IMG/VR virus record: IMGVR_UViG_638341087_000009
Span: 1 to 11,597 of that record
Length of the DNA: 11,597 nucleotides
Direction: 5' to 3' (one strand)
Source of the DNA: a virus
Lineage: Duplodnaviria > Heunggongvirae > Uroviricota > Caudoviricetes
Shown: in pieces, positions 1-11,597 of the stretch
Numbering within the stretch: position 1 is the stretch's first letter
Layout: each line of letters begins with the position of its first letter
The notes under the pieces: model-generated
What the model was told of the DNA's origin: nothing
The model's input: the letters and a program-made list of their open reading frames with translations, nothing else
Database searches by the model: none
Position numbers and translations under genes: made by a program

Positions 1-478
1 ACAGAGAATCCACCCATAACACTGTTTTTGGTTTTAACTGTTCCGCGTGCGCTGAGCCGCATTCACCGCATCACAAAATTCACTTTAAAAAGGGCGGCAG
101 AGCAGCCACGGAGTAAAACTGATACCGCCAAACGTCACCAGAAAATTGATAACAGAGGGCGTTGCAGCGGGGTTGTCACTTAAGCGTATGGTCAACCTGA
201 CAACCCGGTGTCCTCAACGGGGAAGGAATAACCCCGCCATACTTACCGCCGCGCCATTTCGCGGAGTGCCACAACCGGAAGCGCACGGTCGACGAAAATT
301 TAACGACAGGCTATCTATGAACCAGCTACCTCGCCGTGCGCTTTCGCGTTATGGTCTGACTTTTCAGGGAAATATCCTTTCAGTAAACTGTCAGTGCCGG
401 ATGCTCACCCGTGTCCGGCGCACGTACTCCACCTCACCCGTGGAGAACTCCTTAATCACCAACCCTCAGGAGGGTGAA

Positions 479-754
479 ATGTCGACTGAAAATGATGAAA
501 TCATTAACTCCCTGATACGCCAAATTAATAATTTTGATAAAGCATTGCAGCATGCTGCGGCGCGTAGTGATATAACTCTTTTAGCAATTTCATTTCTTGC
601 ATCTGTTATGGATAAAAATGAAGTCGTACGACAGAGTCTTGTTGATTATATCGACTCGCTTCAACCCGGCACTTTCAATCATGAGAGCTTCAATCATGAG
701 AAAGAGCATGTTAAGTCTGTAATTAATTCTCTTATTTTGAATCAAAAGAATTAA
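479..754 (+). CDS. Hypothetical small protein (91 aa), AT-rich insert (moron-like) in the early-left region
   Basis: ATG at 479 preceded by AGGAGGG (466-472, 6-nt spacing). Visibly lower GC than flanks. In-frame 15-bp tandem duplication (674-686 / 689-701, encoding FNHES/FNHEK). The upstream part of the 146..754 track ORF is Arg/Pro-rich, GC-rich and has no SD, so the start was moved to 479. No family recognised. Confidence 0.5.
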   Translation: MSTENDEIINSLIRQINNFDKALQHAAARSDITLLAISFLASVMDKNEVVRQSLVDYIDSLQPGTFNHESFNHEKEHVKSVINSLILNQKN

Positions 755-1052
755 TGCTTTTTGTTGCAAAGTAATTTTCAAGGGGTTCTATTCGAATCCC
801 TTTCTTTTTCATTAACAAGCCAAACCCCTTATCAATGATGTCCATTAGATCCAGGAAGTATTTTTCATGTAAATCCTGGTTATCAGAGAGCTGCTTCTCT
901 TCGTACAGACCGATAAAGGCACGACGCACGTTACCGGATATAGTATCGATGGTTTCTTTTTCTACGGTACTCAGGTCAAGAGTCGCCAGTTGGGAACGAA
1001 CTATATTCGCTGCCATTTCCTGGAATTGCATTGGTAAATCTTTAAATTCCAT
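732..1052 (-). CDS. Hypothetical protein (106 aa), last gene of the leftward early operon
   Basis: ORF with GAGG 6 nt upstream of ATG (complement of 1050-1052). Its 3' end overlaps the 479..754 gene convergently by 23 nt. No family recognised. Confidence 0.5.
   Translation of the reverse strand: MEFKDLPMQFQEMAANIVRSQLATLDLSTVEKETIDTISGNVRRAFIGLYEEKQLSDNQDLHEKYFLDLMDIIDKGFGLLMKKKGIRIEPLENYFATKSINSFDSK
780..809 (+). terminator. Candidate intrinsic terminator downstream of the 479..754 gene
   Basis: Hairpin 782-788 / 794-800 (GGGGTTC / GAATCCC, one G-U pair, 5-nt loop) followed by TTTCTTTTT (801-809). It lies inside the 3' end of the convergent 732..1052 ORF. Confidence 0.35.
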
Positions 1053-1074
1053 TATTAGCCTCGTTGGTTAGCTA

Positions 1075-1293
1075 TTAACGCGGGTATGTAATCATTCTGG
1101 CAATGCTTAATGCCGCTGCTTTTTCCAGATTGGTGATATCCTGCTCCAGAGCGGACAGATTTTCAGCCTGCTTAGCCCTGGCTTCATTAGCCCATTTCAG
1201 ATCCTGCGCTGCATTAATTTTCTGGCGCATCCACTCATAAAGTTCATCATCGGTATAGTCTGGCGAGATGATGACGGGTTCTCGTTTCTGCAT
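1075..1293 (-). CDS. Hypothetical small coiled-coil-like protein (72 aa)
   Basis: ORF with GAGGAA 5 nt upstream of ATG (complement of 1291-1293). Charged, helical-looking sequence; 22-nt gap to the next gene downstream. Confidence 0.55.
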   Translation of the reverse strand: MQKREPVIISPDYTDDELYEWMRQKINAAQDLKWANEARAKQAENLSALEQDITNLEKAAALSIARMITYPR

Positions 1294-1322
1294 ACTGATT
1301 CCTCGCGGTGCTGCTTCGCTTA

Positions 1323-1451
1323 TCAGCCGTTAGATTTTGCCGAGCTGGAAAGCGCCTGTTTAAACTCACTGAAGCTGAGAGCTTCTTCGCCTTCGGCAAG
1401 GCCTTCGAAGTATTCTTCGTAAGCCTTTTCCATGATTGTGTCGAAATCCAT
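1323..1451 (-). CDS. Small acidic protein (42 aa), not in the supplied ORF track
   Basis: Hand translation of the minus strand gives MDFDTIMEKAYEEYFEGLAEGEEALSFSEFKQALSSSAKSNG. AGGTGA lies 6 nt upstream; the start sits 1 nt after the stop of the upstream 80-aa gene. The two listed ORFs covering this interval (1247..1456 -, 1308..1505 +) look like frame shadows. Confidence 0.45.
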   Translation of the reverse strand: MDFDTIMEKAYEEYFEGLAEGEEALSFSEFKQALSSSAKSNG

Positions 1452-1452
1452 A

Positions 1453-1695
1453 TCACTCACCTGAGTTTCTTTCCAGCCAGCGACGGGCACCATTTTCGGT
1501 TTTAAACGTTTTGCTTTTGGTATACGTCATCGCGGTGAATGTGCCGTCCTGGTTGGGAAACACGCCGTACACCAGAGATTCATTGTTGCCAAGATCGATA
1601 GTATCCATGCTGACCTCATTTCCCCTTAACGCCGGGGTAGCGGAACTAAAAAACTGCTGCGCTGTTATATAAAGTGTTCCCGCCGTCATGTTCAT
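1453..1695 (-). CDS. Hypothetical protein (80 aa), first gene of the leftward early operon
   Basis: ORF with GAGGCG 4 nt upstream of ATG; sits about 85 nt downstream of the pL-like promoter. Not Arg-rich, so not obviously N-like. An internal Met would give a 50-aa product. Confidence 0.5.
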   Translation of the reverse strand: MNMTAGTLYITAQQFFSSATPALRGNEVSMDTIDLGNNESLVYGVFPNQDGTFTAMTYTKSKTFKTENGARRWLERNSGE

Positions 1696-1787
1696 ACGCC
1701 TCGGGCTGGCTACTTAACCCCTGACCACTGCCGGGTAACTCGAGGTATTGCCCTGCGTTCTGTGGGGCGGGGTGGGTTGGTGAGCGC

Positions 1788-1817
1788 ATCATAAAACACA
1801 TAAAATGTGTTAGTCAA
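1788..1817 (-). promoter_or_regulatory. pL-like sigma70 promoter for the leftward early operon
   Basis: Minus strand reads TTGACT (complement of 1812-1817), 18-bp spacer, TATGAT (complement of 1788-1793). Read directly from the sequence. Confidence 0.5.
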
Positions 1818-1831
1818 CACAAAAAAAGTGT
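1795..1831. promoter_or_regulatory. Two operator-like palindromes (ACACA-N5-TGTGT type) inside the pL-like promoter
   Basis: Site A 1795-1811 AACACA-TAAAA-TGTGTT, a perfect 17-bp palindrome in the promoter spacer. Site B 1817-1831 ACACA-AAAAA-AGTGT, overlapping the -35. Centres are 21 bp apart (two helical turns). The same motif recurs at 2849-2865. Confidence 0.5.
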
Positions 1832-1840
1832 GCGCAAGAA

Positions 1841-1872
1841 TAAAAAAACTCCCATTCAAGAGGTGATGGGAG
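1841..1872 (-). terminator. Intrinsic terminator ending the repressor/toxin-antitoxin transcript
   Basis: Stem 1849-1855 CTCCCAT / 1866-1872 ATGGGAG, followed on the minus strand by a 7-nt U tract (plus-strand A run 1842-1848). Immediately downstream of the ParE-like stop. Confidence 0.6.
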
Positions 1873-1883
1873 GTGGTTGATTA

Positions 1884-2171
1884 TTAACCGTTACCAGGAT
1901 ATTGCTGACGAGCATGTATCACGCTTACAATTTCAATGCTTGAAGTCGCTACCCTGTATAGGATTATGTAGTTAGGGTGGGTCACAATTTCTCTCAATCC
2001 AGAAACCCGTTCGCTTGGCGGGTATAGATACGGATGCTCAGATAGGGGCAGCACCGATGTTTCAATGCGTATTTTTAGTCTGCGCGCTGCCGGAGGGTTT
2101 TTTTTAGCAATGTAAGTTATAATCTGACTTAAATCATCGCGAGCAGACGGTAACCATAAAACGGGCAGCAT
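1884..2171 (-). CDS. parE: ParE/RelE-family type II toxin (95 aa)
   Basis: MLPVLWLPSARDDLSQIITYIAKKNPPAARR...YIILYRVATSSIEIVSVIHARQ fits the ParE pattern (L.W...A..DL..I..YIA...P.AA ... Y.I.YRV......I..V.HARQ). The start overlaps the upstream antitoxin stop (TAATG). The longer track ORF (136 aa) has an implausible Arg/Lys-rich N-terminal extension. Confidence 0.85.
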   Translation of the reverse strand: MLPVLWLPSARDDLSQIITYIAKKNPPAARRLKIRIETSVLPLSEHPYLYPPSERVSGLREIVTHPNYIILYRVATSSIEIVSVIHARQQYPGNG

Positions 2172-2362
2172 TACACGCTCCCGTTTTCCATGGCAATTTG
2201 ATTGATGATTTTTTCCATTTTTGCCATTACTTCGTCGTGCGGTATTGCTGGTCGTGGATCTGCAAGGCTTGCTGCAACCTTGGCGCGCAACCATTCGTTG
2301 TAACTGTTTTCTTGCTCGATAGTTTCAAATTCTGAAACTATTGGCGAAAGAACTGTGCTCAT
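2171..2362 (-). CDS. Cognate antitoxin (63 aa), ParD-like by context
   Basis: MSTVLSPIVSEFETIEQENSYNEWLRAKVAASLADPRPAIPHDEVMAKMEKIINQIAMENGSV. GAGAGG lies 7 nt upstream of the ATG; it is translationally coupled to parE. Assignment as antitoxin is strong; the exact family is less certain. Confidence 0.65.
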   Translation of the reverse strand: MSTVLSPIVSEFETIEQENSYNEWLRAKVAASLADPRPAIPHDEVMAKMEKIINQIAMENGSV

Positions 2363-2390
2363 AGTATGCCTCTCTGTCGTATGGTTGTAA

Positions 2391-2789
2391 TTATGCTCGA
2401 CGTCCTTTTTGGGCGGCGAGCCATCTTGCAACTGTGCGATCCATTGATTCTTTTTTGTCTTTCATGTCTTTAAGCATTTGTTCTTGCTCCTCTTCTGGGA
2501 AAGCCCCAAATGTTTGAAGCAAATCTCTCTGGCGCGGTCCTATTTTCATTGTATCAGGTACTACAACCTGTTCATCCTCGCTCGGAGGAAGCATGAACCA
2601 AAAAATAGGCCGAGCAGTTATTTGTGAAAGTCGATCTAAATTGTCAGGATTTGGACTAACCAAGCCTGCAGACCATCGCTGCACTGTTTGTTGCGACACT
2701 CCAACTAATTTCCCAAGCTCCGCCTGACTCCAGCCTGTTTCAGACAAGAGTTTCTTTATTCTATATGCAGTAATCTCGAGTGTTTTCAT
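2391..2789 (-). CDS. racR: Prophage repressor, RacR-like (XRE-family HTH), 132 aa from the proposed start
   Basis: HTH motif ...GWSQAELGKLVGVSQQTVQRWSAG... near the N-terminus. Start chosen at MKTLEIT (complement of 2787-2789); a TAGAAT -10 lies about 7 nt upstream, suggesting a near-leaderless mRNA like lambda cI from pRM. The alternative upstream start (2879) has no SD and would run through the operator region. Confidence 0.75.
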   Translation of the reverse strand: MKTLEITAYRIKKLLSETGWSQAELGKLVGVSQQTVQRWSAGLVSPNPDNLDRLSQITARPIFWFMLPPSEDEQVVVPDTMKIGPRQRDLLQTFGAFPEEEQEQMLKDMKDKKESMDRTVARWLAAQKGRRA

Positions 2790-2796
2790 AGTAACA

Positions 2797-2869
2797 ATTC
2801 TACTCAAAAAACGAGTAATGCGCGACACACGAAAATCGGGTTTACATATACACATTTTTTGTGTAATCT
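2797..2869. promoter_or_regulatory. Immunity switch region: divergent promoters and operator palindromes
   Basis: Leftward -10 TAGAAT (complement of 2797-2802) with a poor -35. Rightward TTTACA (2841-2846) with a -10-like TGTAAT/TAATCT (2862-2869). Palindrome TACACA-TTTTT-TGTGTA at 2849-2865 has the same half-sites as the pL operators. A second, different palindrome TACTC-N7-GAGTA sits at 2801-2817. Confidence 0.5.
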
Positions 2870-2895
2870 CCAGTCGCATGATGGAGGTACAAATA

Positions 2896-3168
2896 ATGAA
2901 TGATCATGTTAAGAAAAGGGTCGCGGGAAAATTTTCACAACGAGAACTGGCTATGTTAATGAGCACGAAACAACAAAGCGTATCTCGTTGGTTCAACTCT
3001 AAGTTCCCTGCATCAAGGGTGCTTCACTTGTGTCAATTGATGCAGTGGGAGGTTACTCCACACGAACTCCGACCAGACATTTACCCTAACCCAACCGACG
3101 GTTTACCCGTTGGATGTAAGGCTAACACATCAAATGCACCGGAGTTGATTCATGAAAATCAAGCATGA
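2896..3168 (+). CDS. ydaS: YdaS-like Cro/HTH protein (90 aa)
   Basis: GGAGG (2883-2887) 8 nt before ATG 2896. HTH-like ...FSQRELAMLMSTKQQSVSRW.... Divergent from the repressor, as in the Rac racR-ydaS-ydaT arrangement. The track ORF from 2818 is an upstream extension through the operator region. Confidence 0.7.
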   Translation: MNDHVKKRVAGKFSQRELAMLMSTKQQSVSRWFNSKFPASRVLHLCQLMQWEVTPHELRPDIYPNPTDGLPVGCKANTSNAPELIHENQA

Positions 3169-3577
3169 ACACATCCGCATGGCGATGAATGCCTGGGCGC
3201 ATCCGGACGGCGAGAAAGTACCGGCTGCGAAAATTACCAAAGCGTATTTCGAACTGGGTATGACGTTCCCGGAACTGTATGACGACAGCCATCCGGAAGC
3301 CCTGGCTCGCAATACCCAGAAAATTTTCCGCTGGGTAGAGAAAGACACTCCTGATGCGGTTAAAAAAATTCAGGCGTTGTTACCAGCTATCGAAAAAGCA
3401 ATGCCACCTCTGCTGGTGGCCCGAATGCGCAGCCATAGCTCAGCCTATTTTCGGGAACTGGTGGAGACGCGGGAACGACTGGTGAGAGACGCTGATGATT
3501 TTGTCGCAGTGGCGATCGCTGGTTTCAACCAGATGAATCGTGGTGGCCCTGCAGGAAATATTGTGGCTGTGCATTGA
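3152..3577 (+). CDS. ydaT: YdaT-like protein (141 aa)
   Basis: ATG 3152 with GGAG 7 nt upstream; overlaps the ydaS 3' end by 17 nt. Sequence MKIKHEHIRMAMNAWAHPDGEKVPAAKITKAYFELGMTF... and the synteny recall Rac prophage YdaT. Confidence 0.7.
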   Translation: MKIKHEHIRMAMNAWAHPDGEKVPAAKITKAYFELGMTFPELYDDSHPEALARNTQKIFRWVEKDTPDAVKKIQALLPAIEKAMPPLLVARMRSHSSAYFRELVETRERLVRDADDFVAVAIAGFNQMNRGGPAGNIVAVH

Positions 3578-3648
3578 CTCGCAATATTCATACCGGATCA
3601 CTTCCGGCAATTTGTGAGTAAAAAGATTCGGTATCAGAAGAGGTGAGT

Positions 3649-4686
3649 ATGGCTAACGCCTGGCTCAGATTATGGCATGACATGCCAAATGATCCTAAGT
3701 GGCGAACAATTTCCAGGGTGTCAGGACAGCCAATCGCAACAGTGATGGCTGTGTATATCCACCTTCTGGTGAGCGCGTCACGAAATGTCACGACATGTCA
3801 CGGCGTGTCACTACGTGGTCACATTGATGTCACGACGGAAGATTTAGCAAGTGCGCTTGATGTGACGGAAGACGTAATTGATTCAATTTTGCATGCAATG
3901 CAGGGGCGGGTTCTGGATGGTGACCTTATTTCCGGATGGGAAAAACGTCAGGTGCTGAAAGAGGACAATGGTAACGTTTCGCAAACGGCAAAATCCCCGG
4001 CAGAGCGCAAGAGAGCGCAGCGGGAGCGCGAAAAGCTGCGGAAATATGATGCTGATTGTCACGATGAGTCACGACGTGTCACGCATCTGTCACGACAAGT
4101 CACGACAGATAAAGATACAGATACAGAATTAAACCCCACACATAACGCGCGCATGCGCGAGAGTGCTCCAACCGGTGAGTCGAATGGTGCGTCGTTGCAG
4201 ACAGCCGAACCTGAATACCTGGACGGCCTGAGCGAACCGATCGGGAAATTTTCGATGACCACTGTCTGGCAGCCGTCGCCGGATTTTCGACAACGGGCAG
4301 CAGTGTGGGGTATGGCTCTGCCTGAGCCGGAATTTACACCTGCTGAGCTTGCCGCATTCCGGGATTACTGGATGGCGGAGGGGAAGGTTTTCACGCAGGT
4401 TCAGTGGGAGCAGAAATTTGCCCGCCACGTGCAGCACGTCAGGGCACAGGTAAAACCAGTCAGCAAGGGGGTAAGCCATGCAGCATCAGGTGGCACGGCA
4501 TCACGGGCAGTTCAGGAAATCCGGGCAGCACGCGAACAGTGGGAACGTGACAACGGATTTATCAGCAACGGAAACGGCCTGGAAGCTGTGGGAGCTTATG
4601 GGGGAGGTGTATTCGAACCGCTGGACACAGAAGAACGGGGCCGCACCTTCGAAGCTCTGGATTGCCCAGATTGGCGCGATGACTGA
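3649..4686 (+). CDS. Replication initiator (lambda O-like role); 3' boundary uncertain
   Basis: ATG 3649 with GAGGTG 4-9 nt upstream. The N-terminus MANAWLRLWHDMPNDPKWR looks like a phage replisome-organiser N-domain. The gene contains two iteron clusters in its low-complexity linker, as the lambda origin lies inside O. The last 209 nt overlap the P-like gene in another frame. Confidence 0.65.
   Translation: MANAWLRLWHDMPNDPKWRTISRVSGQPIATVMAVYIHLLVSASRNVTTCHGVSLRGHIDVTTEDLASALDVTEDVIDSILHAMQGRVLDGDLISGWEKRQVLKEDNGNVSQTAKSPAERKRAQREREKLRKYDADCHDESRRVTHLSRQVTTDKDTDTELNPTHNARMRESAPTGESNGASLQTAEPEYLDGLSEPIGKFSMTTVWQPSPDFRQRAAVWGMALPEPEFTPAELAAFRDYWMAEGKVFTQVQWEQKFARHVQHVRAQVKPVSKGVSHAASGGTASRAVQEIRAAREQWERDNGFISNGNGLEAVGAYGGGVFEPLDTEERGRTFEALDCPDWRDD
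3777..3834. repeat. Iteron cluster 1: six GTCAC(G) repeats at 10-11 bp spacing
   Basis: GTCACG at 3777, 3787, 3797 and 3829; GTCACT at 3807; GTCAC at 3818. Units resemble tGTCACGnnn. Confidence 0.75.
4058..4135. repeat. Iteron cluster 2 (five GTCACG repeats) with an adjacent AT-rich patch: candidate origin
   Basis: GTCACG at 4058, 4068, 4078, 4089 and 4099 (10-11 bp phasing), followed by AGATAAAGATACAGATACAGAATTAAACC (4107-4135). Confidence 0.7.
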
Positions 4687-5140
4687 ACAGCAAATCCGGC
4701 TGGTCTGCCGTCAGTGCATGGACCGCTGCCGGGCGGGTGAAACGTGGCCCCCGGACCTTGCTGAGTTTGTTGCACTGATTTCGGAGAGTGGGGCAAATCC
4801 ATTTGGTCTTACGGTGGATGCAGTGATGGAAGAGTACCGGCGCTGGCGCAATGAATCCTGGCGATACGACGGGAGTGATAAATACCCGTGGCCACAGCCT
4901 GTGCTGTACCACATCTGCCTCGAAATGCGTACCAGAGGGATTGAGCGCCAGATGACGCAGGGTGAGTTAAAACGACTTGCGGAACGGCAACTGACGAAAT
5001 GGGCAAAGCATGTTGGTAACGGGATGAGTGTTCCGCCAGTGCGACGACAACTGGAAGGGGCGAAACACCCGCAAGGGCCAACGCCAATTGAACGGCTGAA
5101 ACAGGAATACGAACGCCGGAAGGCAGCTGGTTTTATTTGA
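4478..5140 (+). CDS. Lambda P-like replication protein (DnaB helicase loader), 220 aa
   Basis: Segment ...DLAEFVALISE...MEEYRRWRNESWRYDGSDKYPWPQPVLYHICLEMRTRG...ELKRLAERQL... matches from memory lambda P (...FVAWCRE...YEYCRKRGLYPDAESYPWKSNAHYWLVTNLYQNMRANALTDAELRRKAADEL...). AAGGGGG (4465-4471) lies 6 nt before ATG 4478. Alternative in-frame starts are ATG 4598 and ATG 4679, the latter overlapping the O-like stop as ATGACTGA. Confidence 0.7.
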   Translation: MQHQVARHHGQFRKSGQHANSGNVTTDLSATETAWKLWELMGEVYSNRWTQKNGAAPSKLWIAQIGAMTEQQIRLVCRQCMDRCRAGETWPPDLAEFVALISESGANPFGLTVDAVMEEYRRWRNESWRYDGSDKYPWPQPVLYHICLEMRTRGIERQMTQGELKRLAERQLTKWAKHVGNGMSVPPVRRQLEGAKHPQGPTPIERLKQEYERRKAAGFI

Positions 5141-5173
5141 ATCTGAGAAACGATTTTGTCGGAGGAAATATTA

Positions 5174-5848
5174 ATGGAAACCGTATCTGACGCACTGAAA
5201 GCACTGAAAAAAGCCTCTTCACATGTGGTGGCAGCTCGCCTTGGAATCAGTCGTGAAGAGGCTGTCAACGAGCTGTGGGAACTCAAAAGAAAAGGCGTCG
5301 TTGATAAAACTGGTCACACCTGGTTTCTGGCTGGCGAAGGTGAATCCCGGGTAACCGAAGAGCGGCCAGTAAAATCTGAAGCACAGGATATGCTGACCGG
5401 GGAGGTCGAACAAAAAGTTACCGCAGACATGATGATTGAGTTTATCGGTCAGGATGGGGCTAAAACGTGTGAGGAACTGGCGGGTAAGTTCGGTGTCAGT
5501 ACTCGCAAGGTTGCTTCCACGCTGGCGGTGGTAACCGCAACGGGGCGGCTGGCACGCGTTAATCAGAACGGTAAATTTCGTTACTGCATGCCGGGCGATA
5601 ATTTACCAGCAGAGCCGAAAGCCGCGCTGGTAACGGAAAGTGATGGTAAGGCCTTTCCTCAGCCAGCAGGTGCTGCGTTACCAGTCCGGGAAGCCGCAAC
5701 ACAGGAAGAAATTAAAACAGAAACTGTGGCGGACATTGTGCAGCCGTTGCCATCGTTTACCGAAACGCAAGCAGATGAGCTGATTTTTCCGTCCCTTCGC
5801 AGGGCAAACCTGGCGCTGCGCAGGGCGAAAAGTGATGTTCAGAAGTGA
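5174..5848 (+). CDS. Hypothetical protein (224 aa) with two winged-helix-like repeats
   Basis: GGAGGA (5161-5166) 7 nt before ATG 5174. Two similar modules of about 50 aa (ALKALKKASSHVVAARLGISREEAVNELWELKRKGVVDKTG and MIEFIGQDGAKTCEELAGKFGVSTRKVASTLAVVTATGRLARVNQNG). Function unknown. Confidence 0.6.
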   Translation: METVSDALKALKKASSHVVAARLGISREEAVNELWELKRKGVVDKTGHTWFLAGEGESRVTEERPVKSEAQDMLTGEVEQKVTADMMIEFIGQDGAKTCEELAGKFGVSTRKVASTLAVVTATGRLARVNQNGKFRYCMPGDNLPAEPKAALVTESDGKAFPQPAGAALPVREAATQEEIKTETVADIVQPLPSFTETQADELIFPSLRRANLALRRAKSDVQK

Positions 5849-6382: not shown

Positions 6383-6487
6383 GCCAAATTAACAATCGGA
6401 ACTTCGTGAAGAGAAAGCATAATCCAAATCTGAATAATTAAGTTCAGCACTGTAAATAAAATTTAATCCTTAACTGGAGGTATATTT

Positions 6488-6700
6488 ATGTTAAATACAC
6501 AGAAAGCCATTAATGCGGAAAAATATAACGAGTGGGCAAGAAAATTCTCTGAGCAGATTTTTAAAATTACTGGCGATGAGAATGTGGCAAAAAATGAATT
6601 AGAACCGTGGACACCTGAAGGAAACGCACCAAATTATTGCTGGTGGGAGGTTGATCCGGTTGATGCTGCAAATGAAGCCATGAGTTACCACAACGATTAA
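6488..6700 (+). CDS. Hypothetical small protein (70 aa), AT-rich
   Basis: GGAGG (6476-6480) 7 nt before the ATG, in an AT-rich island. No family recognised. Confidence 0.55.
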   Translation: MLNTQKAINAEKYNEWARKFSEQIFKITGDENVAKNELEPWTPEGNAPNYCWWEVDPVDAANEAMSYHND

Positions 6701-6704
6701 TGTC

Positions 6705-6735
6705 GGGAGGCCGCCCGAAAGGGCGGTAAGAAATG
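6705..6735 (+). promoter_or_regulatory. SD-hairpin-start codon arrangement upstream of the membrane-protein gene
   Basis: GGGAGG (6705-6710), then hairpin CCGCCC-GAAA-GGGCGG (6711-6726, GAAA tetraloop), then ATG 6733. The hairpin sits between the SD and the start codon. Confidence 0.35.
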
Positions 6736-6951
6736 ACTACATTATTCAGAAAAGAATATCCGCAAAAAAGTAGGGCGACAGAATTTTTGTTTCTCATTCT
6801 GTTTATCGTATTGATGATACCGATATCCCCTCTAATTTTTGTCTGGGCAATCGGGAAAATAATTGAGCCAGTTACTGAATTGTATACCGACGTTGTATGG
6901 GCGTCGTTCAACACACTGCACAATAAAATTAATCCGTATAAGGAAAACTGA
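6733..6951 (+). CDS. Small predicted membrane protein (72 aa)
   Basis: Hydrophobic stretch EFLFLILFIVLMIPISPLIFVWAIG consistent with a transmembrane helix. Its stop overlaps the next start as TGATATG. Confidence 0.5.
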   Translation: MTTLFRKEYPQKSRATEFLFLILFIVLMIPISPLIFVWAIGKIIEPVTELYTDVVWASFNTLHNKINPYKEN

Positions 6952-6952
6952 T

Positions 6953-7216
6953 ATGGCAACTTTGACAAAAAAAGAACGGGCATGGTTAAACGAATTACAG
7001 GAAGTTCTTGATCGCTGTCCATCACCGAAAAAAATTGGCTTTTACACCATTGGCGATAAAAGCATTTACCTGTATGACCTACGCCGCATGGATGAAATCA
7101 TGGAGGCTCTTGATAATCGTTCGTCGATGGATTGGTGTGTTGCTGTTCATGATATGAATGCAGGGTTTGATGAAAAGATTTTGTTCCCCTCATCAGTTGA
7201 AAGCACTGCGGGTTAA
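6953..7216 (+). CDS. Hypothetical small protein (87 aa)
   Basis: ATG 6953 two nt after the upstream stop, with AAGGAAAA upstream. The track ORF from 6863 is an upstream extension overlapping the preceding gene. Confidence 0.5.
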   Translation: MATLTKKERAWLNELQEVLDRCPSPKKIGFYTIGDKSIYLYDLRRMDEIMEALDNRSSMDWCVAVHDMNAGFDEKILFPSSVESTAG

Positions 7217-7226
7217 GGAGTAACAC

Positions 7227-8096
7227 ATGACCACTATTACCAAAGAACGTATTGAATTGTTCATTAAAAATCCGGTTGAAAACGGGCTTACCCGTGGTGA
7301 ACAAATGGAACTGGCACGGATTGCGCTGGCATCGCTGGAAGCAGAGCCGGTGGCAAAGATTATAGCTCATTACCCATTAGGGGTTGACGTAGGCAAACAA
7401 AAATTCGTACAGGCCATTAGAGAGCTTCCTGACTTTGGCGGATATCTATTTGCCGCCCCTCCAGCGCCGATAGTGCCGGAAGAAATGTATTGGCAGGATG
7501 CGCCAGTTGAAGGCAGCAGCAAAGCGGCTGCATACGCTACAGGCTGGAACGATTGCCGCGAAGCCATGCTTCAGTCCGGAAACTTTCGGGAAAATAAAGA
7601 TTCGTCAACCAATAATTTTCGGAAAATCCCGGAAGCGTCAACCAGCTCTCCGGTAACTCCGGCTCTTCTGCCTGGTGGTTTCACCATTGAGGAGGCGAAG
7701 GAATTACATGAAGACCTGGTACGCAGCCACATAAGCAAGGCCTTAAGTGGCGAAAAGATGAAAAAGAAAGATCGCGATGCTGATTTGCGCTGGATTCATG
7801 GCGTTATAGTTCAGGCAGCGTGGTTTGTAAAAGCATCACTGGAGCAGAATGCACTATCGGGCAACTATCCGGTAACTCCGGATAGTTGGATAAGCTGTAG
7901 TGAGCGAATGCCGGATACCAAAACAGCCGTTCTTGTTGCCGTGGAGTTTGACAGGAAAGGTGACTGGCGAATGAAATGGGCGACTTACATCCCGGGGCAT
8001 CCTGACGCTAATGATGGGTGGATAATTCCTGGTGCGTCGTGGAAACCGTCACACTGGATGCCGCTACCAGAACCGCCGCAGGAGGTGCGCCAATGA
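7227..8096 (+). CDS. DUF551 domain-containing phage protein (289 aa)
   Basis: AAGGAG (7215-7220) 6 nt before the ATG. C-terminus ...WISCSERMPDTKTAVLVAV...GWIIPGASWKPSHWMPLPEPP matches the DUF551 signature recalled from memory (WxxxxExxP ... HWMPLPEPP). The roughly 220-aa N-terminal region is unassigned. Confidence 0.7.
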   Translation: MTTITKERIELFIKNPVENGLTRGEQMELARIALASLEAEPVAKIIAHYPLGVDVGKQKFVQAIRELPDFGGYLFAAPPAPIVPEEMYWQDAPVEGSSKAAAYATGWNDCREAMLQSGNFRENKDSSTNNFRKIPEASTSSPVTPALLPGGFTIEEAKELHEDLVRSHISKALSGEKMKKKDRDADLRWIHGVIVQAAWFVKASLEQNALSGNYPVTPDSWISCSERMPDTKTAVLVAVEFDRKGDWRMKWATYIPGHPDANDGWIIPGASWKPSHWMPLPEPPQEVRQ

Positions 8097-8176
8097 ACTG
8101 GCCTGAAGCATTTGCAATTACAGGCGTTGCTATGGCTATCGCTTTTTTAGTATATGTTATTTGTCGGTGGGGGTAA
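8093..8176 (+). CDS. Unannotated tiny hydrophobic ORF (27 aa): MNWPEAFAITGVAMAIAFLVYVICRWG
   Basis: ATG overlaps the upstream stop (ATGA); GGAGGTG (8081-8087) lies 5 nt upstream. One predicted transmembrane segment. Too short for the ORF track. Confidence 0.35.
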   Translation: MNWPEAFAITGVAMAIAFLVYVICRWG

Positions 8177-8211
8177 AAACGTTCGCCGGGATTAACACCA
8201 AAGGAGGGAAT

Positions 8212-8316
8212 ATGTCGGATGATATCTCACTGGCAATGGAAGGTGCGCTGGCTGTTATTGCTGTTGTGGGCGTTTACTGCCTGGTTGTGTTTTTGATGGA
8301 TCGACTAGGGAACTAA
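8212..8316 (+). CDS. Unannotated small membrane peptide (34 aa): MSDDISLAMEGALAVIAVVGVYCLVVFLMDRLGN
   Basis: Strong SD AAGGAGGG (8201-8208) 3-4 nt before the ATG. One transmembrane segment with a charged C-terminus. Confidence 0.45.
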   Translation: MSDDISLAMEGALAVIAVVGVYCLVVFLMDRLGN

Positions 8317-8324
8317 ATTCATTA

Positions 8325-8346
8325 CGATATGGGAATTCCCATATCG
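8325..8346. repeat. 22-bp perfect palindrome CGATATGGGAATTCCCATATCG
   Basis: Exact inverted repeat with no spacer, centred on GAATTC, between the small-peptide gene and the hok promoter. Confidence 0.8.
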
Positions 8347-8358
8347 GGTAAAAACGGT

Positions 8359-8386
8359 TTGCGGTAAAGCGAGAGTTAAGTAGAAT
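8359..8386 (+). promoter_or_regulatory. Candidate promoter for the hok/mok mRNA
   Basis: TTGCGG (8359-8364), 16-bp spacer, TAGAAT (8381-8386). Predicted start near 8393 gives an mRNA of about 420 nt to the terminator at 8812, similar to known hok mRNAs. Confidence 0.4.
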
Positions 8387-8440
8387 TGCTGCGGGCGCTT
8401 GAGGCTGTCTGCCTCGGGCATGCCACCGTAAGGCAGACAG

Positions 8441-8512
8441 AGAAAAGCCCCAGTTAACATTACGCGTCCGGCAAGACGCTTAACATTAATCTGAGGCCAT
8501 ATCTATGCTCTA
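8441..8512 (-). ncRNA. Candidate Sok-like antisense RNA (about 70 nt)
   Basis: Weak minus-strand promoter (TTGCCT, complement of 8543-8548; 17-bp spacer; TAACCT, complement of 8520-8525). Transcript would be antisense to the mok-frame SD and ATG (8493-8507). It would end in a minus-strand hairpin (arms 8491-8497 / 8447-8453, inner stem 8464-8468 / 8475-8479) followed by UUUUCU. Structure-based inference only. Confidence 0.3.
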
Positions 8513-8561
8513 CACACGTAGGTTAGCCTCTTACGTGCCGAAAGGCAAGGAGAAGCAGGCT

Positions 8562-8717
8562 ATGAAGCAGCAAAAGGCGATGCTAATCGCCCTGATCGTC
8601 ATCTGTTTAACCGTCATAGTGACGGCACTGGTAACGAGGAAAGACCTCTGCGAGGTACGAATCCGAACCGGCCAGACGGAGGTCGCTGTCTTCACAGCTT
8701 ACGAACCTGAGGAGTAA
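8562..8717 (+). CDS. hokD: Hok/Gef-family type I toxin (51 aa), closest to HokD/RelF; in-frame Mok-like extension from ATG 8505
   Basis: MKQQKAMLIALIVICLTVIVTALVTRKDLCEVRIRTGQTEVAVFTAYEPEE is the Hok family signature (transmembrane helix plus ...TRK.LCE..IR.G..EVAAF.AYE). AAGGAG (8547-8552) lies 9 nt before ATG 8562. The upstream in-frame ATG 8505 with its own GAGG gives a 70-aa form, as in chromosomal mok genes. Confidence 0.85.
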   Translation: MKQQKAMLIALIVICLTVIVTALVTRKDLCEVRIRTGQTEVAVFTAYEPEE

Positions 8718-8785
8718 GAGACCCGGCGGGGGAGAAATCCCTCGCCACCGCTGATGTGTCAGGCATCCTCAACGCACCCGCACTT

Positions 8786-8812
8786 AACCCGCTTCGGCGG
8801 GTTTTGTTTTTT
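8786..8812 (+). terminator. Intrinsic terminator of the hok transcript
   Basis: Stem AACCCGC / GCGGGTT with TTCG loop (8786-8803), followed by TTGTTTTTT. Confidence 0.65.
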
Positions 8813-8884
8813 CTGGTCGTTCTGGTTTACAATCCATCCGTCAGCCTGAACAACTGGCACCTGCTGCGCCAGCAGAGAAAACAG

Positions 8885-9163
8885 ATGGCGCACGATACCA
8901 AATTTTACAATTCGGATAACTCTGCCGCCCCTGCCAGCAGGCACGGGCGGCGTTCCCGCACTTTCAAATCTGACTGGTTCCAGCATCCCCCATGCACTGA
9001 AGAACAGGCCGAGTGGCTAATTCAGTGCTACCGCAGACACGGATACGAGATTAAGAAAGCCCTCAGCCTCGATTATCGTCACTGGATAATCTCCGTCAGG
9101 CTTCCTTACTCCGAACGACCACCGCGTCCGTCCCGCACATTCCAGCAACGCATCTGGAGGTAA
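8885..9163 (+). CDS. Hypothetical protein (92 aa), Rem-like by position
   Basis: ATG 8885; the track ORF from 8756 would run through the terminator. The order hok, small protein, DUF968 protein, Q matches my recollection of Qin prophage hokD-rem-ydfU-quuQ. Weak SD. Confidence 0.5.
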   Translation: MAHDTKFYNSDNSAAPASRHGRRSRTFKSDWFQHPPCTEEQAEWLIQCYRRHGYEIKKALSLDYRHWIISVRLPYSERPPRPSRTFQQRIWR

Positions 9164-9164
9164 C

Positions 9165-10211
9165 GTGCGGGTATTACTTCGACCTGTTCTGGTACCGGAA
9201 CTCGGGCTGGTGATCGTTAAGCCGGGCCGTGAATCCATGCCGGTATTCCACAATACCCGGGTACTGGTGGAGCCGGAACCGAAAAGCATGCGTAATCTGC
9301 CGTCCGGGGTCGTTCCTGCCGTTCGCCAGCCGCTGGCGGAGGATAAATCATTACTGCCATTTTTCAGCGACGAACGAGTGATTCGTGCTGCTGGTGGCGC
9401 TGGCGCATTGTCTGACTGGCTGTTGCGCCATATTAAATCCTGCCAGTGGCCACACGGCGATTATCATCACAGCGAAACCGTCATTCACCGTTATGGTACC
9501 GGCGCAATGGTGTTGTGCTGGCACTGCGACAACCAGCTGCGCGACCAGACCTCCGAATCACTGGAACATCTGGCTCAACAAAACCTGGCAGCCTGGATGA
9601 TTGACGTCATACGCCATGCAATGAATGGCTCGCAGGAGCGTGAATTATCTCTGGCTGAATTATCCTGGTGGGCGGTCCGCAATCAGGTGGCGGACGCGCT
9701 ACCGGAAGCGGTATTACGTCGTTCGCTGGGGTTGCGTGCGGAAAAAATCCGCTCAATGTACCGTGAAAGCGACATCGTACCGGGAGAGCAGACCGCCACC
9801 AGCATACTGAAGCAGCGCACAAAAAATCTTGCGCCGCTGCCTCACGCTCACCAGCAAAAACCGCCACAGGAAAAGACGGTGGTCAGCATTGCCGTTGATC
9901 CTGAGTCTCCGGAATCTTTCATGAAACGACCTAAACGTCGCCGCTGGGTTAACGAGAAATACACGCACTGGGTGAAGACACAGCCGTGTGCGTGTTGTGG
10001 TAAGCCTGCTGACGATCCGCATCACCTGATTGGTCATGGTCAGGGGGGAATGGGGACAAAATCTCACGATATTTTCACGCTACCGCTGTGTCGGGAGCAT
10101 CACAACGAGCTTCATGCGGATCCGCTGGCGTTCGAAGAAAAGCATGGTTCTCAGGTTGATTTAATTTTTCGTTTTCTTGATCACGCCTTTGCAACTGGCG
10201 TGCTTGGGTAA
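9165..10211 (+). CDS. ydfU: YdfU-like DUF968 protein (348 aa) with a Cys/His metal-binding-like C-terminus
   Basis: GTG start 4 nt after GGAGG (9156-9160). C-terminal motif ...QPCACCGKPADDPHHLIGHGQGGMGTKSHDIFTLPLCREHHNELH.... Length is close to K-12 YdfU (about 349 aa, recalled from memory). Confidence 0.7.
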   Translation: MRVLLRPVLVPELGLVIVKPGRESMPVFHNTRVLVEPEPKSMRNLPSGVVPAVRQPLAEDKSLLPFFSDERVIRAAGGAGALSDWLLRHIKSCQWPHGDYHHSETVIHRYGTGAMVLCWHCDNQLRDQTSESLEHLAQQNLAAWMIDVIRHAMNGSQERELSLAELSWWAVRNQVADALPEAVLRRSLGLRAEKIRSMYRESDIVPGEQTATSILKQRTKNLAPLPHAHQQKPPQEKTVVSIAVDPESPESFMKRPKRRRWVNEKYTHWVKTQPCACCGKPADDPHHLIGHGQGGMGTKSHDIFTLPLCREHHNELHADPLAFEEKHGSQVDLIFRFLDHAFATGVLG

Positions 10212-10223
10212 AAGAGGTGACTG

Positions 10224-10583
10224 ATGCTCATAGATTTGGTTTTACCTTACCCGCCGACGGTGAACACTTACTGGCGACGCCGTGGCAGCACATATTTTGT
10301 ATCAAAAGCCGGGGAGCGTTATCGCCGGGCTGTGGCGCTTATTGTTCGCCAGCAGCGACTGAAATTAAGCCTGTCCGGACGGCTGGCAATAAAAATTATT
10401 GCAGAGCCACCGGATAAGCGTCGTCGTGACCTGGACAATATTCTGAAAGCACCGCTGGATGCGCTGACGCATGCGGGAGTGCTCATTGATGACGAGCAGT
10501 TTGATGAAATCAATATTGTACGTGGTCAGCCAGTATCTGGTGGACGGCTGGGTGTGAAGATTTACAAAATTGAGAGTGAGTGA
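10224..10583 (+). CDS. rusA: RusA-family Holliday junction resolvase (119 aa)
   Basis: ...LPYPPTVNTYWRRRG...PPDKRRRDLDNILKAPLDALTHAGVLIDDEQ...GGRLGVKIY... matches RusA motifs recalled from memory (PPSNNRYY..., PDRRRRDLDN..K...DALT.AG...DD, GGRL). GAGGTG lies 4 nt before the ATG. Confidence 0.85.
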   Translation: MLIDLVLPYPPTVNTYWRRRGSTYFVSKAGERYRRAVALIVRQQRLKLSLSGRLAIKIIAEPPDKRRRDLDNILKAPLDALTHAGVLIDDEQFDEINIVRGQPVSGGRLGVKIYKIESE

Positions 10584-10591
10584 GCGTAAAT

Positions 10592-11122
10592 ATGATATAT
10601 CCGGAAATTACAGGCAAAAGCGGCGAACATTTACGCCTGAACACGCTGGAAGCAGTCTGGATCCAGGGGAAATTACGGATGTGGGGGCGGTGGTCGTATA
10701 TCGGTGGGGGTAAATCCGGAAATATGTTTAACCGGTTACTGGTTTCGAAAAAGCTGACGAAAACAGCAGTTAATGAGGTTTTACGCAGCATGAAGAAATC
10801 CGGGCTGGAAAAACCGGAACTTGAGGCATTTTTTCGGGATATGACCAGAGGGAAGCAGAAGAGCTGGTTGTCACATTGTACAGACACAGAGGCGTTGATT
10901 ATTGATCGCGTTATCAGTGAGGTGCTTGGGGAATATCCCGGGCTAATCAATATTCTCCGGCAAAGGTACGAAGGACGGGGAATGAGTAAGAGAAAAATGG
11001 CAGAATGTTTAAATCGTACTCACCCGGAATGGTGTTTCAGCACATGTGAGAAACGTATTGCAGGTTGGTTAGCCGTGGCTGAACACATGCTTTATGTACC
11101 TATGCACGATTCATTTCGATAA
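10592..11122 (+). CDS. Q-like late-gene antiterminator (176 aa); assignment mainly positional
   Basis: Immediately follows rusA (start 8 nt after its stop) and precedes a short terminator-bounded region, as Q does in lambdoid phages. Sequence similarity to Q families is not verified. Confidence 0.5.
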   Translation: MIYPEITGKSGEHLRLNTLEAVWIQGKLRMWGRWSYIGGGKSGNMFNRLLVSKKLTKTAVNEVLRSMKKSGLEKPELEAFFRDMTRGKQKSWLSHCTDTEALIIDRVISEVLGEYPGLINILRQRYEGRGMSKRKMAECLNRTHPEWCFSTCEKRIAGWLAVAEHMLYVPMHDSFR

Positions 11123-11129
11123 AAAAAGC

Positions 11130-11158
11130 TTGCTTTTTTACGCAGAAACAGCTTGAAT
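11130..11158 (+). promoter_or_regulatory. Candidate pR'-like late promoter
   Basis: TTGCTT (11130-11135), 17-bp spacer, TTGAAT (11153-11158), 8 nt after the Q-like stop. Weak match; placement is by analogy. Confidence 0.2.
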
Positions 11159-11216
11159 TCCTGTAAGCTTCGCAAAGCTGTATCGCGAGGCGAAATGCAA
11201 GTTTTTTCGCACAAGG

Positions 11217-11241
11217 AAGCCACCGGAAGGTGGTTTTTTTT
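11217..11241 (+). terminator. Intrinsic terminator (tR'-like)
   Basis: Stem GCCACC / GGTGG(T) with GGAA loop (11219-11233), followed by an 8-nt T run (11234-11241). Confidence 0.65.
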
Positions 11242-11364
11242 GTGTCCGTAATATACAGCAGCGCAATAAATTCGCTGGTGGTTATTAATACCGTTCTTTC
11301 AGCTTGCTGGCTTTTTCGACAAGAGTTATTGGTGTGTCACGTTAACCGAAAAAGGGAAAAAGAC

Positions 11365-11562
11365 ATGCTGAAACAGCAGGATATGACCGAAACCGCCAGA
11401 GTGGTGTTTAATGAATTAAGCGTTACCGAACCGGCGACAGTCGGGGAGGTTGCGCAGAATACTTACCTTTCACGCGAACGCTGCCAGTTAATACTGACCC
11501 AGCTTGTTATGGCGGGTCTGGCAGACTATCAGTGCGGTTGTTACAGACGCCTTCAGTCCTGA
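11365..11562 (+). CDS. Hypothetical small protein (65 aa), first gene after the tR'-like terminator
   Basis: ATG 11365 with AAGGG 8 nt upstream. The track ORF from 11230 would begin inside the terminator. Not hydrophobic, so not a holin. Confidence 0.45.
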   Translation: MLKQQDMTETARVVFNELSVTEPATVGEVAQNTYLSRERCQLILTQLVMAGLADYQCGCYRRLQS

Positions 11563-11575
11563 AGGCTTTTTATTT
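11549..11575 (+). terminator. Candidate intrinsic terminator overlapping the stop codon of the 65-aa gene
   Basis: Stem GCCTTCA / TGAAGGC with GTCC loop (11549-11566), followed by TTTTTATTT. Confidence 0.5.
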
Positions 11576-11597
11576 GTGGTGAATGGGCGGCTGGTGG

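Follow-up and report, generated by a model that had tools for sequence, protein, structure and literature searches.

We analysed an 11,597-bp stretch of DNA (hereafter the window, meaning the whole stretch at that length) and conclude that it is very probably the early region of an ordinary lambdoid prophage of Escherichia coli strain E22, with a Qin-type gene order, put together as a patchwork from the E. coli prophage pool. The window is a genuine recombinant of at least five segments, whose pieces come from that wider pool, and its mosaicism is real at the level of the population, not as a mixture of K-12 prophages. The latter had been proposed from the letters alone (the sequence-only reading), in which Rac-like immunity, lambda-like replication, a Qin-like hok region and a DLP12-like rusA-Q end were joined, with accessory cargo at every junction. 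The window offers a clean worked example of lambdoid mosaicism, in which each patch is traceable to a near-identical counterpart; beyond correct annotation, its significance is small.

The window is the entire contig AAJV02000067.1 (assembly GCA_000167855.1), the only difference being two Ns in the stored copy. The accession AAJV00000000 denotes the draft genome sequence of an enteropathogenic E. coli (EPEC) strain of serotype O103:H2, E. coli E22 (PMC2974192). The window comprises 11.6 kb of the prophage only.

Segments and joints

We compiled an identity map in 100-bp steps against eleven loci, together with a base-level map of the positions at which the best donor switches, where "donor" denotes the closest relative sampled and nothing more. 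The segments and their closest relatives are as follows:

1 to ~1745: QA-1986 and DCE7 types, ~100% identity (DCE7 without the AT-rich island described below)
~1786-3198: AATIPP, JABXUX and TUM1881 types, 98-100%
3199 to ~3900: QA-1986 type, 96-100%
4100 to ~9850: DCE7/B1_2 type, mostly 98-100%, with dips to 90-93% near 5201-5300 and 8301-8500
~9632-11597: AUSMDU00014361 type, 100%

Outside its own segment, each of these donors drops to 55-85% identity or does not align at all. Mosaicism as such, which the sequence-only reading had claimed, is therefore borne out, given that segments 97-100% identical to different prophages stand next to stretches where the same prophages are that distant. The switches fall at five joints:

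B0, 464/465 and 1054/1055: insertion or deletion of the island
B1, ~1745-1785: in the pL leader, just downstream of the promoter PL
B2, ~3175-3198: just to the right of the YdaT operator
B3, ~3900-4100: inside the replication initiator gene, between two clusters of iterons
B4, ~9650-9850: inside ydfU

Separate searches with single regions gave different best relatives and very different frequencies. QA-1986 630 matches the island region (440-1080) at 100%, and 198 genomes have this region. For the immunity region (1700-3160), the best relative is TUM1881 at 99.5%, with only 12 genomes having it; for the rusA-Q end (9850-11597), it is AUSMDU00014361 at 99.0%, with occurrence in 767 genomes.

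The surroundings of B1 and B2 are themselves conserved. The pL leader shows 86-100% identity across the 16 distinct relative sequences recovered, K-12 Rac included at 87%, and 30 bp at B2 (3146-3175) are kept even in Rac (96.7%), with the alignments of several relatives stopping exactly at 3175. Because the pL leader and the YdaT-operator block are conserved on both sides of the immunity cassette, they can serve as recombination linkers, and we infer that the two flanks do act in this way, in agreement with the classical view of lambdoid immunity swaps. The segments would have been joined by homologous recombination at such short sequences conserved in the family (the pL leader, and the YdaT operator with the start of ydaT), whilst other joins, to judge from the positions of the joints, would have taken place inside the conserved initiator and ydfU genes.

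Since the joints lie at linkers and inside genes, they are not confined to sites of accessory genes. The accessory elements named in the sequence-only reading do exist, namely a toxin-antitoxin (TA) pair, AT-rich stretches, an open reading frame (ORF) for a 34-amino-acid (aa) peptide, and hok/sok, and the AT-rich stretches have 37.8% GC (465-1054) and 39.3% GC (6383-7226), against 49.1% overall. Their placement at every module junction did not hold up, as two of the five joints are inside core genes (B3 in the initiator gene and B4 in ydfU). Moreover, the hok locus and the AT-rich block of small ORFs, which had been taken for junction cargo, both lie within one uninterrupted 5.7-kb patch of the DCE7/B1_2 type.

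Comparison with K-12 prophages and lambda, and other readings of the mosaic

The window was compared by blastn with the Rac, Qin and DLP12 regions of K-12 MG1655 and with lambda, and protein comparisons were made alongside. Only Qin gave substantial blocks of DNA, four in number, at 1-464 (97.6%), 1055-1647 (98.0%), 8548-8811 (98.5%) and 8868-10211 (84%); together they align 2665 of the 11,597 bases (23%), with no nucleotide collinearity across the region. Rac gave five or six short matches of 30-174 bp, and no DNA match to the window was found by blastn in lambda or DLP12. Amino acid identities to the K-12 and lambda proteins were:

HokD and Qin HokD: 100%
YdfU and Qin YdfU: 86%
DUF1627 protein and Rac YdaW: 55%
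RusA and DLP12 RusA: 40%
YdaT and Rac YdaT: 33%
YdaS-like protein and Rac YdaS: 32%
repressor and Qin DicA: 28%
P and lambda P: 25% (E = 4e-5)

DicA was the best K-12 match of the repressor, which gave no BLAST or tblastn hit to RacR. Likewise, no BLAST hit connected the initiator with lambda O or Rac YdaU, or the Q-like protein with QuuD, YdfT or lambda Q, and the Pfam families of lambda O, YdaU, YdfT and lambda Q were matched by none of the window proteins.

It follows that the four attributions made from the letters alone fared unequally. That of the hok region to Qin is sound (100% in protein and 98.5% in DNA). The immunity region does share the YdaS and YdaT Pfam families with Rac, but at only ~32% aa identity, with a repressor that resembles DicA and not RacR, and with DNA matches no larger than the linkers. 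As for replication, a P-family protein is present (25%), but the initiator is not of the O family and lambda DNA is not matched. At the right end, the order of rusA followed by Q is as in DLP12, whereas RusA is only 40% identical, BLAST finds no similarity between the Q-like protein and QuuD, and there is no DNA match.

The proposal that the window combines Rac immunity, lambda replication, Qin hok and DLP12 rusA-Q, with cargo at every junction, thus seems to us unlikely as a whole. It accounts for the Qin-like DNA at hokD and ydfU, for ydaS/ydaT, P and RusA being of the same Pfam families as their counterparts in Rac, lambda and DLP12, for the near-identical immunity cassette in a Rac-site prophage of TUM1881, and for cargo that differs among relatives at DicF/ydfC, behind the repressor and at hok. 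However, with lambda and DLP12 unmatched in DNA, Rac matched in linker-sized pieces only, and the proteins concerned at 25-40% identity, the named prophages are poor sources for these modules; the repressor is DicA-like, the initiator is neither O nor YdaU, and the Q-like protein has no QuuD match. In addition, the left arm (DicF and ydfCBA) is also Qin-like, so that the genes stand in the order of the Qin skeleton throughout the window. The positions of B3 and B4, the continuous donor patch that holds both hok and the AT-rich small ORFs, and the place of the TA pair within the immunity operon (see below) likewise argue against cargo at every junction.

A second possibility is that the window is not meaningfully mosaic, being one conserved lineage whose patches reflect uneven sampling or divergence of its relatives. 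At least five other assemblies do contain sister prophages that are 99.6-100% identical over the extent of their contigs, and DCE7-type prophages as well as the Qin skeleton have their genes in the same order. We nevertheless hold this to be very unlikely, for one donor jumps from 100% identity to 57-80% or to none within tens of bases whilst another does the reverse, and such reciprocal jumps cannot be produced by uneven mutation rates. Furthermore, the immunity cassette is found on backbones with three integrases and attachment (att) sites and at least three replication modules. Nor is the window collinear with any single known prophage. The best coverage by a complete E. coli genome (n=5426) was 81% at ~95% identity, only 12 genomes reached 80%, and the best phage record covered 42%; no complete RefSeq E. 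coli genome contains the window, because it is one whole contig of a draft genome. One of the matching records, PP818812.1 ("Actinobacillus phage vB_Apl-pPE4"), aligns over 22% of the window at 88% identity and in this resembles E. coli Rac-type phages. Its host attribution is unexpected and could reflect contamination or a mislabelled host.

Independent assemblies bear on the integrity of the contig. Three other NCBI assemblies carry window positions 1-7530 (two assemblies, 99.65%) or 1-5169 (the third, 99.98%), and Logan assemblies of two read sets carry 1-6061 (100%), 3277-8468 (99.9%), 6038-11597 (99.93%) and 8439-11597 (100%). These overlapping sister contigs span 1-11597, so that every joint is reproduced and is not a misassembly. 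Although the window is the entire short contig of an old draft and sister contigs break at ~5169, 6061 and 7530, it is scarcely conceivable that the mosaic is an artefact, a draft-contig chimera across repeats of similar lambdoid prophages, given that every joint recurs at 99.6-100% in the three NCBI and two Logan read-set assemblies and that the chimeric initiator and the chimeric YdfU have exact copies in independent assemblies (YdfU in those from Logan).

In the sister contigs, the patchwork prophage adjoins yccA, and its early region lies behind a 339-aa integrase, a DUF4224 protein, a YdfE-type exonuclease, DUF1482 and dicB. The sister draft contigs (L023, L024, L026 and L027) stop in the DUF1627 region or in the nin-like/DUF551 region, and the window contig itself ends in the DicF flank on the left and beyond Q on the right. 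The contig ends probably fall in sequences that recur in other prophages of the same genomes and would thereby hamper assembly from short reads.

The immunity cassette and the replication module

Judged by its sequence, the immunity region is a heteroimmune relative of the PaaR2-PaaA2-ParE2/YdaS/YdaT switch of CP-933P, a prophage of O157:H7. Its predicted features are:

1788-1831, minus strand: PL-type promoter (TTGACT, 18 nt, TATGAT), the best sigma-70 match in the window (10/12 positions)
1796-1810 and 1817-1831: putative OL operator palindromes ACACATAAAATGTGT and ACACAAAAAAAGTGT, 21 bp apart, overlapping the PL-type promoter
1884-2171, minus strand: ParE-family toxin, 95 aa (Pfam ParE_toxin, E = 2.3e-17)
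2171-2362, minus strand: PaaA2-family antitoxin, 63 aa, without a DNA-binding domain (Pfam PaaA2, E = 1.7e-22)
2391-2789, minus strand: repressor, 132 aa, with an N-terminal helix-turn-helix (HTH) domain (Pfam HTH_3) and a PaaR2-like C-terminal domain
2801-2865: OR region, between the divergent repressor and cro-like genes
2850-2864, 2801-2817 and 2825-2828: putative OR sites, respectively the perfect palindrome ACACATTTTTTGTGT, the variant TACTCAAAAAACGAGTA and a half-site, at a spacing of ~24 bp
2896-3168, plus strand: YdaS-family Cro analogue, 90 aa (Pfam YdaS_toxin, E = 2.3e-10)
3145-3162, plus strand: YdaT operator OM (TTGATTcatgaaAATCAA), with zero mismatches to TTGATTN6AATCAA, at the end of ydaS and the start of ydaT
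3152-3577, plus strand: YdaT, functional analogue of CII, 141 aa (Pfam YdaT_toxin)

Perfect copies of ACAC-N7-GTGT occur three times in the window, all at OR or OL, where 0.8 would be expected by chance. The repressor would bind these operators at OR and OL and shut off PR and PL, with the YdaS-like protein acting as Cro and YdaT acting as CII through its exact TTGATTN6AATCAA operator. That motif, which occurs without mismatch once in the window, was footprinted as the YdaT operator at the same place, the end of ydaS and the start of ydaT, in CP-933P (Prolic-Kalinsek et al. 2023, PMC9986795). YdaT itself matches the structures 3C4R (E = 1.2e-90) and 8BT1, the CP-933P YdaT (E = 1.8e-80), in the Protein Data Bank (PDB).

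The repressor and the YdaS-like protein are a different matter. For comparison we used PaaR2 from a locus of the CP-933P type (L011, whose ParE is 100% identical to PDB 5CW7 and whose YdaT has 8BT1 as its best match). Only the C-terminal 57 aa of the repressor align with this PaaR2 (53% identity), whereas the HTH domain cannot be aligned, and BLAST detects no similarity between the YdaS-like protein and the CP-933P-type YdaS. The unalignable N-terminus and the unrelated YdaS therefore point to an immunity specificity different from that of CP-933P. We also considered the repressor as a relative of RacR or as a full-length PaaR2, and rejected both, there being no RacR hit and a likeness to PaaR2 in the C-terminal part only; against the PDB, it gave only weak matches to the HTH domain of P22 C2. 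Pfam showed no S24 peptidase domain in the repressor, so RecA-mediated self-cleavage is unlikely, as for PaaR2. Upstream of its gene (2789-2830, minus strand), a TAGAAT hexamer stands 7 nt before the ATG, with a poor -35 element and no Shine-Dalgarno sequence, which suggests that the repressor mRNA is leaderless and made from an activator-dependent promoter of the PRM type, as shown for cI and paaR2.

The ParE-family toxin is ~70% identical to ParE2 of O157:H7 (PDB 5CW7, E = 3.8e-37) and the antitoxin ~80% identical to PDB 3ZBE over 50 aa, and the stop codon of paaA2 overlaps the start codon of parE at 2171. The exact 132-aa repressor was found in 24 contigs. In 8/8 of the distinct prophage contexts listed it is followed by the 63-aa PaaA2 and the 95-aa ParE, even though the contexts have the differing integrases and att sites (ompW, yebY/copD and ttcA) and the replication modules mentioned above. 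As PaaA2-ParE follows the repressor in each of them, the pair travels with it as one cassette. The TA pair, which the sequence-only reading had counted as an insertion at a junction, thus forms the distal end of the repressor operon, as in the published CP-933P system (PMC8630535), and is more aptly assigned to the immunity module, where it occupies the position of rexAB in lambda. This corrects a tempting misreading, since ParE/PaaA2 is a built-in part of a CP-933P-type immunity operon and not free cargo. In the wider family, the slot behind the repressor is variable, holding HigBA in AUSMDU00014361 and being empty in QA-1986 630, Qin and Rac.

The authors of the CP-933P work proposed that the TA genes form an addiction module by which the immunity region is kept from being replaced (PMC8630535). 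By the same token, paaA2-parE would be co-transcribed behind the repressor gene of the window and act as an addiction module that moves with the immunity cassette. The cassette may be an uncharacterised heteroimmune switch of the PaaR type, whose TA pair would enforce retention of the whole cassette during swaps of immunity regions at the two linkers.

A cassette for immunity that is 98-100% identical to that of the window is also found in TUM1881 (L006 3833-13875), where it belongs to a prophage that occupies the Rac site (ttcA) and has the Rac-type genes int-xis-rcbA-ralR-recET-kilR. The same cassette thus circulates between backbones of the Rac type and the Qin type.

To the right of ydaT lies the replication module:

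3649-4686, plus strand: replication initiator, 345 aa, with a C-terminal Pfam DnaT match (E = 2.9e-17) and matches to PHROG replication-initiation families
3777-3835 and 4058-4105: iteron clusters within the initiator gene (GTCAC every 10-11 bp), the second followed by AT-rich DNA at 4106-4135
4679-5140, plus strand: helicase loader of the lambda P family, 153 aa (Pfam Phage_lambda_P, 58 bits against a cut-off of 26), its gene overlapping the end of the initiator gene

GTCAC-N5-GTCAC has six matches in the window, all within 3777-4103, where none would be expected by chance. The initiator gave no Phage_rep_O or DUF1376 match, and its assignment as lambda O or Rac YdaU was rejected for lack of BLAST similarity and for its different Pfam families. 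An exact copy of the protein, read from the ATG at 3649, is on record in only six contigs, AAJV02000067.1 among them; a look-up with a GTG start found nothing, the ATG form being the one on record. Replication would start at the iterons inside the initiator gene, with the help of the lambda-P-type helicase loader.

In lambda, the N-terminal half of O binds the origin and the C-terminal half contacts P. Joint B3 divides the initiator gene of the window between the two iteron clusters, and the C-terminal half of the initiator is of the same donor type as the P gene. A half that binds the iterons would thus be split from a half co-inherited with P, which fits the division of labour in lambda O.

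Three points must be set against our account of the window. Neither the direction of the recombination events nor the sequence in which they took place can be reconstructed. The HTH domain of the repressor and the YdaS-like protein are unrelated to those of CP-933P, so that the regulatory logic is carried over by analogy. Finally, operator binding, the Cro and CII roles, TA addiction and origin function are read from homology and from patterns in the sequence.

Accessory slots and the relation to known systems

The left arm of the window comprises the following features:

92-143, minus strand: DicF small RNA gene (Rfam RF00039, 75 bits against a gathering score of 48)
465-1054, no strand assigned: AT-rich island, 590 bp (37.8% GC)
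479-754, plus strand: island ORF1, 91 aa, with an AGGAGG ribosome-binding site and a terminator-like hairpin downstream (780-802)
732-1052, minus strand (the pL direction): island ORF2, 106 aa, of phrog_6937 (E = 2.9e-69), a family without a functional annotation
1075-1293, minus strand: ydfC, early-left gene as in Qin
1323-1451, minus strand: ydfB, early-left gene as in Qin
1453-1608, minus strand: ydfA/DUF1391, early-left gene as in Qin
1621-1781, minus strand: conserved pL leader, ~160 bp, the linker that holds joint B1

The products of ydfC, ydfB and ydfA are 98.6-100% identical to those of Qin, in keeping with the DNA identities on this arm (98% over 1055-1647, and 97.6% over 1-464 on the dicF side), and dicB would lie just past the left end of the window. 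The island is a precise insertion or deletion, in that Qin and DCE7 align at 1-464 and again from 1055, with nothing between; it is at least 80% covered in 198 of the 5426 complete genomes. Its two ORFs are convergent and overlap by 23 bp, and ORF1 is oriented against the pL operon, as sieB is in Rac and lambda. ORF1 homologs form only 15 clusters, all from E. coli, one of them still 91 aa long at 76% identity, whereas ORF2 has 235 homologs in Escherichia and Salmonella, conserved over the N-terminal ~55 aa and variable at the C-terminus in the alignment. Searches of Pfam, PHROGs and PADLOC gave neither ORF a functional name (for ORF1 there was no hit at all, nor a convincing promoter), and the homologs, all in Escherichia or Salmonella, are hypothetical proteins. 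AlphaFold models of both were all-helical and of low confidence (mean predicted local distance difference test scores of 68 and 62), and a fold search of BFVD returned nothing below E = 0.05. ORF1 is in frame with an upstream 54-aa ORF that is annotated in island-free relatives, so that some gene callers report a 145-aa fusion from an ATG at 318; the ribosome-binding site of ORF2 is in backbone sequence, outside the island. That the pair is a new exclusion, defence or TA-like system expressed in the lysogen, and the DicF/ydfC slot an unexplored hot spot for such systems, is a speculation that we think quite improbable.

The pL leader is near-invariant over ~100 nt in 10 distinct relatives, K-12 Rac included, whilst the flanks differ. 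Cytosine is very frequent in its 5' part (ACCAACCCACCCCGCCCCACA), after which come a hypervariable stretch of ~35 nt and then the conserved ydfA ribosome-binding site. When the leader was considered as a structured RNA of the put-like or nut-like kind, its folding energy was not better than that of shuffled sequences (z = +0.97), the sole Rfam match was a chance one, and 1/36 pairs covaried in the consensus fold of 10 relatives. As the block hardly varies, little covariation can appear in it, and the structured-RNA reading is neither supported nor excluded. Our guess is that the leader might be a site for Rho utilisation or antitermination.

Beyond the P gene, a nin-like block leads up to the hok/sok locus:

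5174-5848, plus strand: YdaW-like DUF1627 protein (assigned by Pfam; 55% to Rac YdaW, as above)
5960-6382, plus strand: DUF977 protein, Ren-like (Pfam; phrog_142, "Ren-like exclusion protein")
6383-7226, plus strand: AT-rich block (39.3% GC) with three small ORFs
6488-6700, 6733-6951 and 6953-7216, plus strand: the ORFs of this block, for 70 aa, a DUF4014 protein and 87 aa, respectively
7227-8096, plus strand: 289-aa protein with a C-terminal DUF551 domain (Pfam, E = 9.8e-21)
8212-8316, plus strand: ORF for a 34-aa hydrophobic peptide, with a strong ribosome-binding site
8393-8812, plus strand: complete hok/sok-type locus (full Rfam sok model at 8393-8567, 114 bits against a gathering score of 59)
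8393-8567, 8562-8717, 8768-8780 and 8786-8812: the parts of this locus, namely the Sok-target leader, hok (Pfam HOK_GEF), the 3' element and the terminator

The AT-rich block varies among relatives, with breakpoints at ~6390-6420, 6700-6730 and 6980-7080, and the exact DUF551 protein is indexed in 1628 blocks of the assembly collection. The 34-aa ORF is called as a gene in relatives and carries a RefSeq annotation in DCE7. In the hok/sok locus, the 3' element CCTCAACGCACCC (8768-8780) is nearly complementary to GGGCGCTTGAGG at the 5' end (8393-8404), and an antisense Sok promoter was not identified at the locus; an ATG at 8505, upstream of and in frame with hok, opens a 70-aa ORF. In Qin, similarity does not begin until 8548, 14 bp ahead of the hok gene, since relE is what precedes it in K-12. 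The window hok looks like the intact form of the K-12 relBE-hokD arrangement (L003 17025-17289), in which relBE has replaced the leader.

The right end carries:

8885-9163, plus strand: 92-aa ORF upstream of ydfU (phrog_1212), annotated in DCE7
9165-10211, plus strand: YdfU, 348 aa (DUF968, HNH-like; Pfam DUF968, E = 8e-77)
10224-10583, plus strand: RusA Holliday-junction resolvase, 119 aa (Pfam RusA, E = 1.6e-16)
10592-11122, plus strand: DUF1133 protein, presumed Q-like late antiterminator (Pfam DUF1133, E = 1e-110)
11365-11566, plus strand: 65-aa ORF downstream of Q (phrog_331), annotated in relatives, with a terminator-like hairpin at 11549-11566

The DUF1133 protein also gave a weak Phage_antitermQ match (35 bits against a cut-off of 26), and we presume it to be the late-gene antiterminator. 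In Qin, an unannotated stretch between rem and ydfU (L003 16310-16600) encodes a 76% identical homolog of the 92-aa ORF.

The sequence-only reading had also taken the module junctions to be hot spots for accessory cargo. From the gene tables of the relatives, three slots do change their content. The first, from DicF/dicB or kilR to ydfC/ydfA, holds the island in the window and elsewhere nothing, sieB or other convergent pairs of small genes (for 99+92 aa, 124+148 aa, 211+211 aa and 212+69 aa). In the second, after DUF977, the AT-rich ORFs of the window are swapped for other genes in QA-1986 630, TUM1881 and AUSMDU00014361. The third, around hok, holds hok alone, hok with a BOF protein, hok with a Fic/Doc toxin, or a ParDE pair in place of hok; in Qin it holds relBE and a 5'-truncated hokD. 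These slots uphold the hot-spot idea in a weaker form, which is the known "moron" pattern.

Morons are independent accessory transcription units between the core genes of phages ("The moron comes of age", PMC3594210). Island ORF1 (a ribosome-binding site, ORF and terminator in AT-rich DNA, running against the operon) and hok/sok appear to have the typical moron layout, and both occupy slots where relatives hold different genes.

CP-933P (Sp12 of O157:H7) shares with the window the arrangement of regulator, antitoxin and toxin genes divergent from ydaS-ydaT, followed by an initiator gene, as well as operators at both OR and the distal OL/PL and a repressor without S24 whose message is apparently leaderless. 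For paaR2-paaA2-parE2/ydaS-ydaT of CP-933P, the layout of OR plus OL/PL was shown experimentally (Jurenas et al. 2021, PMC8630535). The operators differ, being GTTTAGTAA-type repeats in CP-933P and ACAC-N7-GTGT in the window.

Qin has the same order of dicB-DicF-ydfC-ydfB-ydfA-repressor, then cro, a ydaT remnant (ydfX), hokD and ydfU-Q. In contrast to the window, its immunity genes are dicA/dicC without a TA pair behind the repressor, its replication and nin-like genes are lost, it has no rusA, and its antiterminator YdfT is of the lambda Q family (PF03589). The product of ydfX (L003 19347-19637) aligns with the N-terminal 83 residues of the window YdaT at 36% identity, and YdfX, next to dicC, looks like the truncated remnant of such a CII analogue.

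With Rac, the window has in common the YdaS and YdaT Pfam families and, at the DNA level, the pL leader (87%) and the 30-bp YdaT-operator block. It has no RacR homolog, its early-left genes are of the dicB/ydfABC type where Rac has kilR/sieB/ydaFG, and it pairs a DnaT-domain initiator with P where Rac has YdaU (DUF1376) and the DnaC-like YdaV. DLP12 similarly places a RusA-family resolvase directly upstream of an antiterminator gene, and the Q-like protein of the window weakly matches the Pfam family of QuuD (PF06530), but upstream of rusA are ybcN-ninE-ybcO in DLP12 and ydfU/DUF968 in the window.

The overall design is that of lambda, with a divergent repressor/cro switch at OR, a distal OL/PL, a CII analogue, paaA2-parE behind the repressor gene where lambda has its accessory genes rexAB, an iteron origin inside the initiator gene, a P-family loader, a Ren-like protein, and a resolvase followed by Q. 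The initiator is nevertheless not of the Phage_rep_O family, RusA stands in place of NinG/Rap, and the Q-like protein belongs to DUF1133 and not to the lambda Q family. No Pfam match to an N-family antiterminator was found among the ORFs scanned (ydfA, ydfB and ydfC were outside the scan), and no recognisable nut site turned up in the window, although no search aimed at nut sites was made.

What is new in the window is only an unstudied immunity specificity (ACAC-N7-GTGT) and a few genes or sequences without an assigned function (the orphan ORF pair of the island and the leader). All of its elements are of known kinds, namely lambdoid mosaicism, immunity of the CP-933P type with ParE/PaaA2, a hok/sok locus, and RusA followed by Q.

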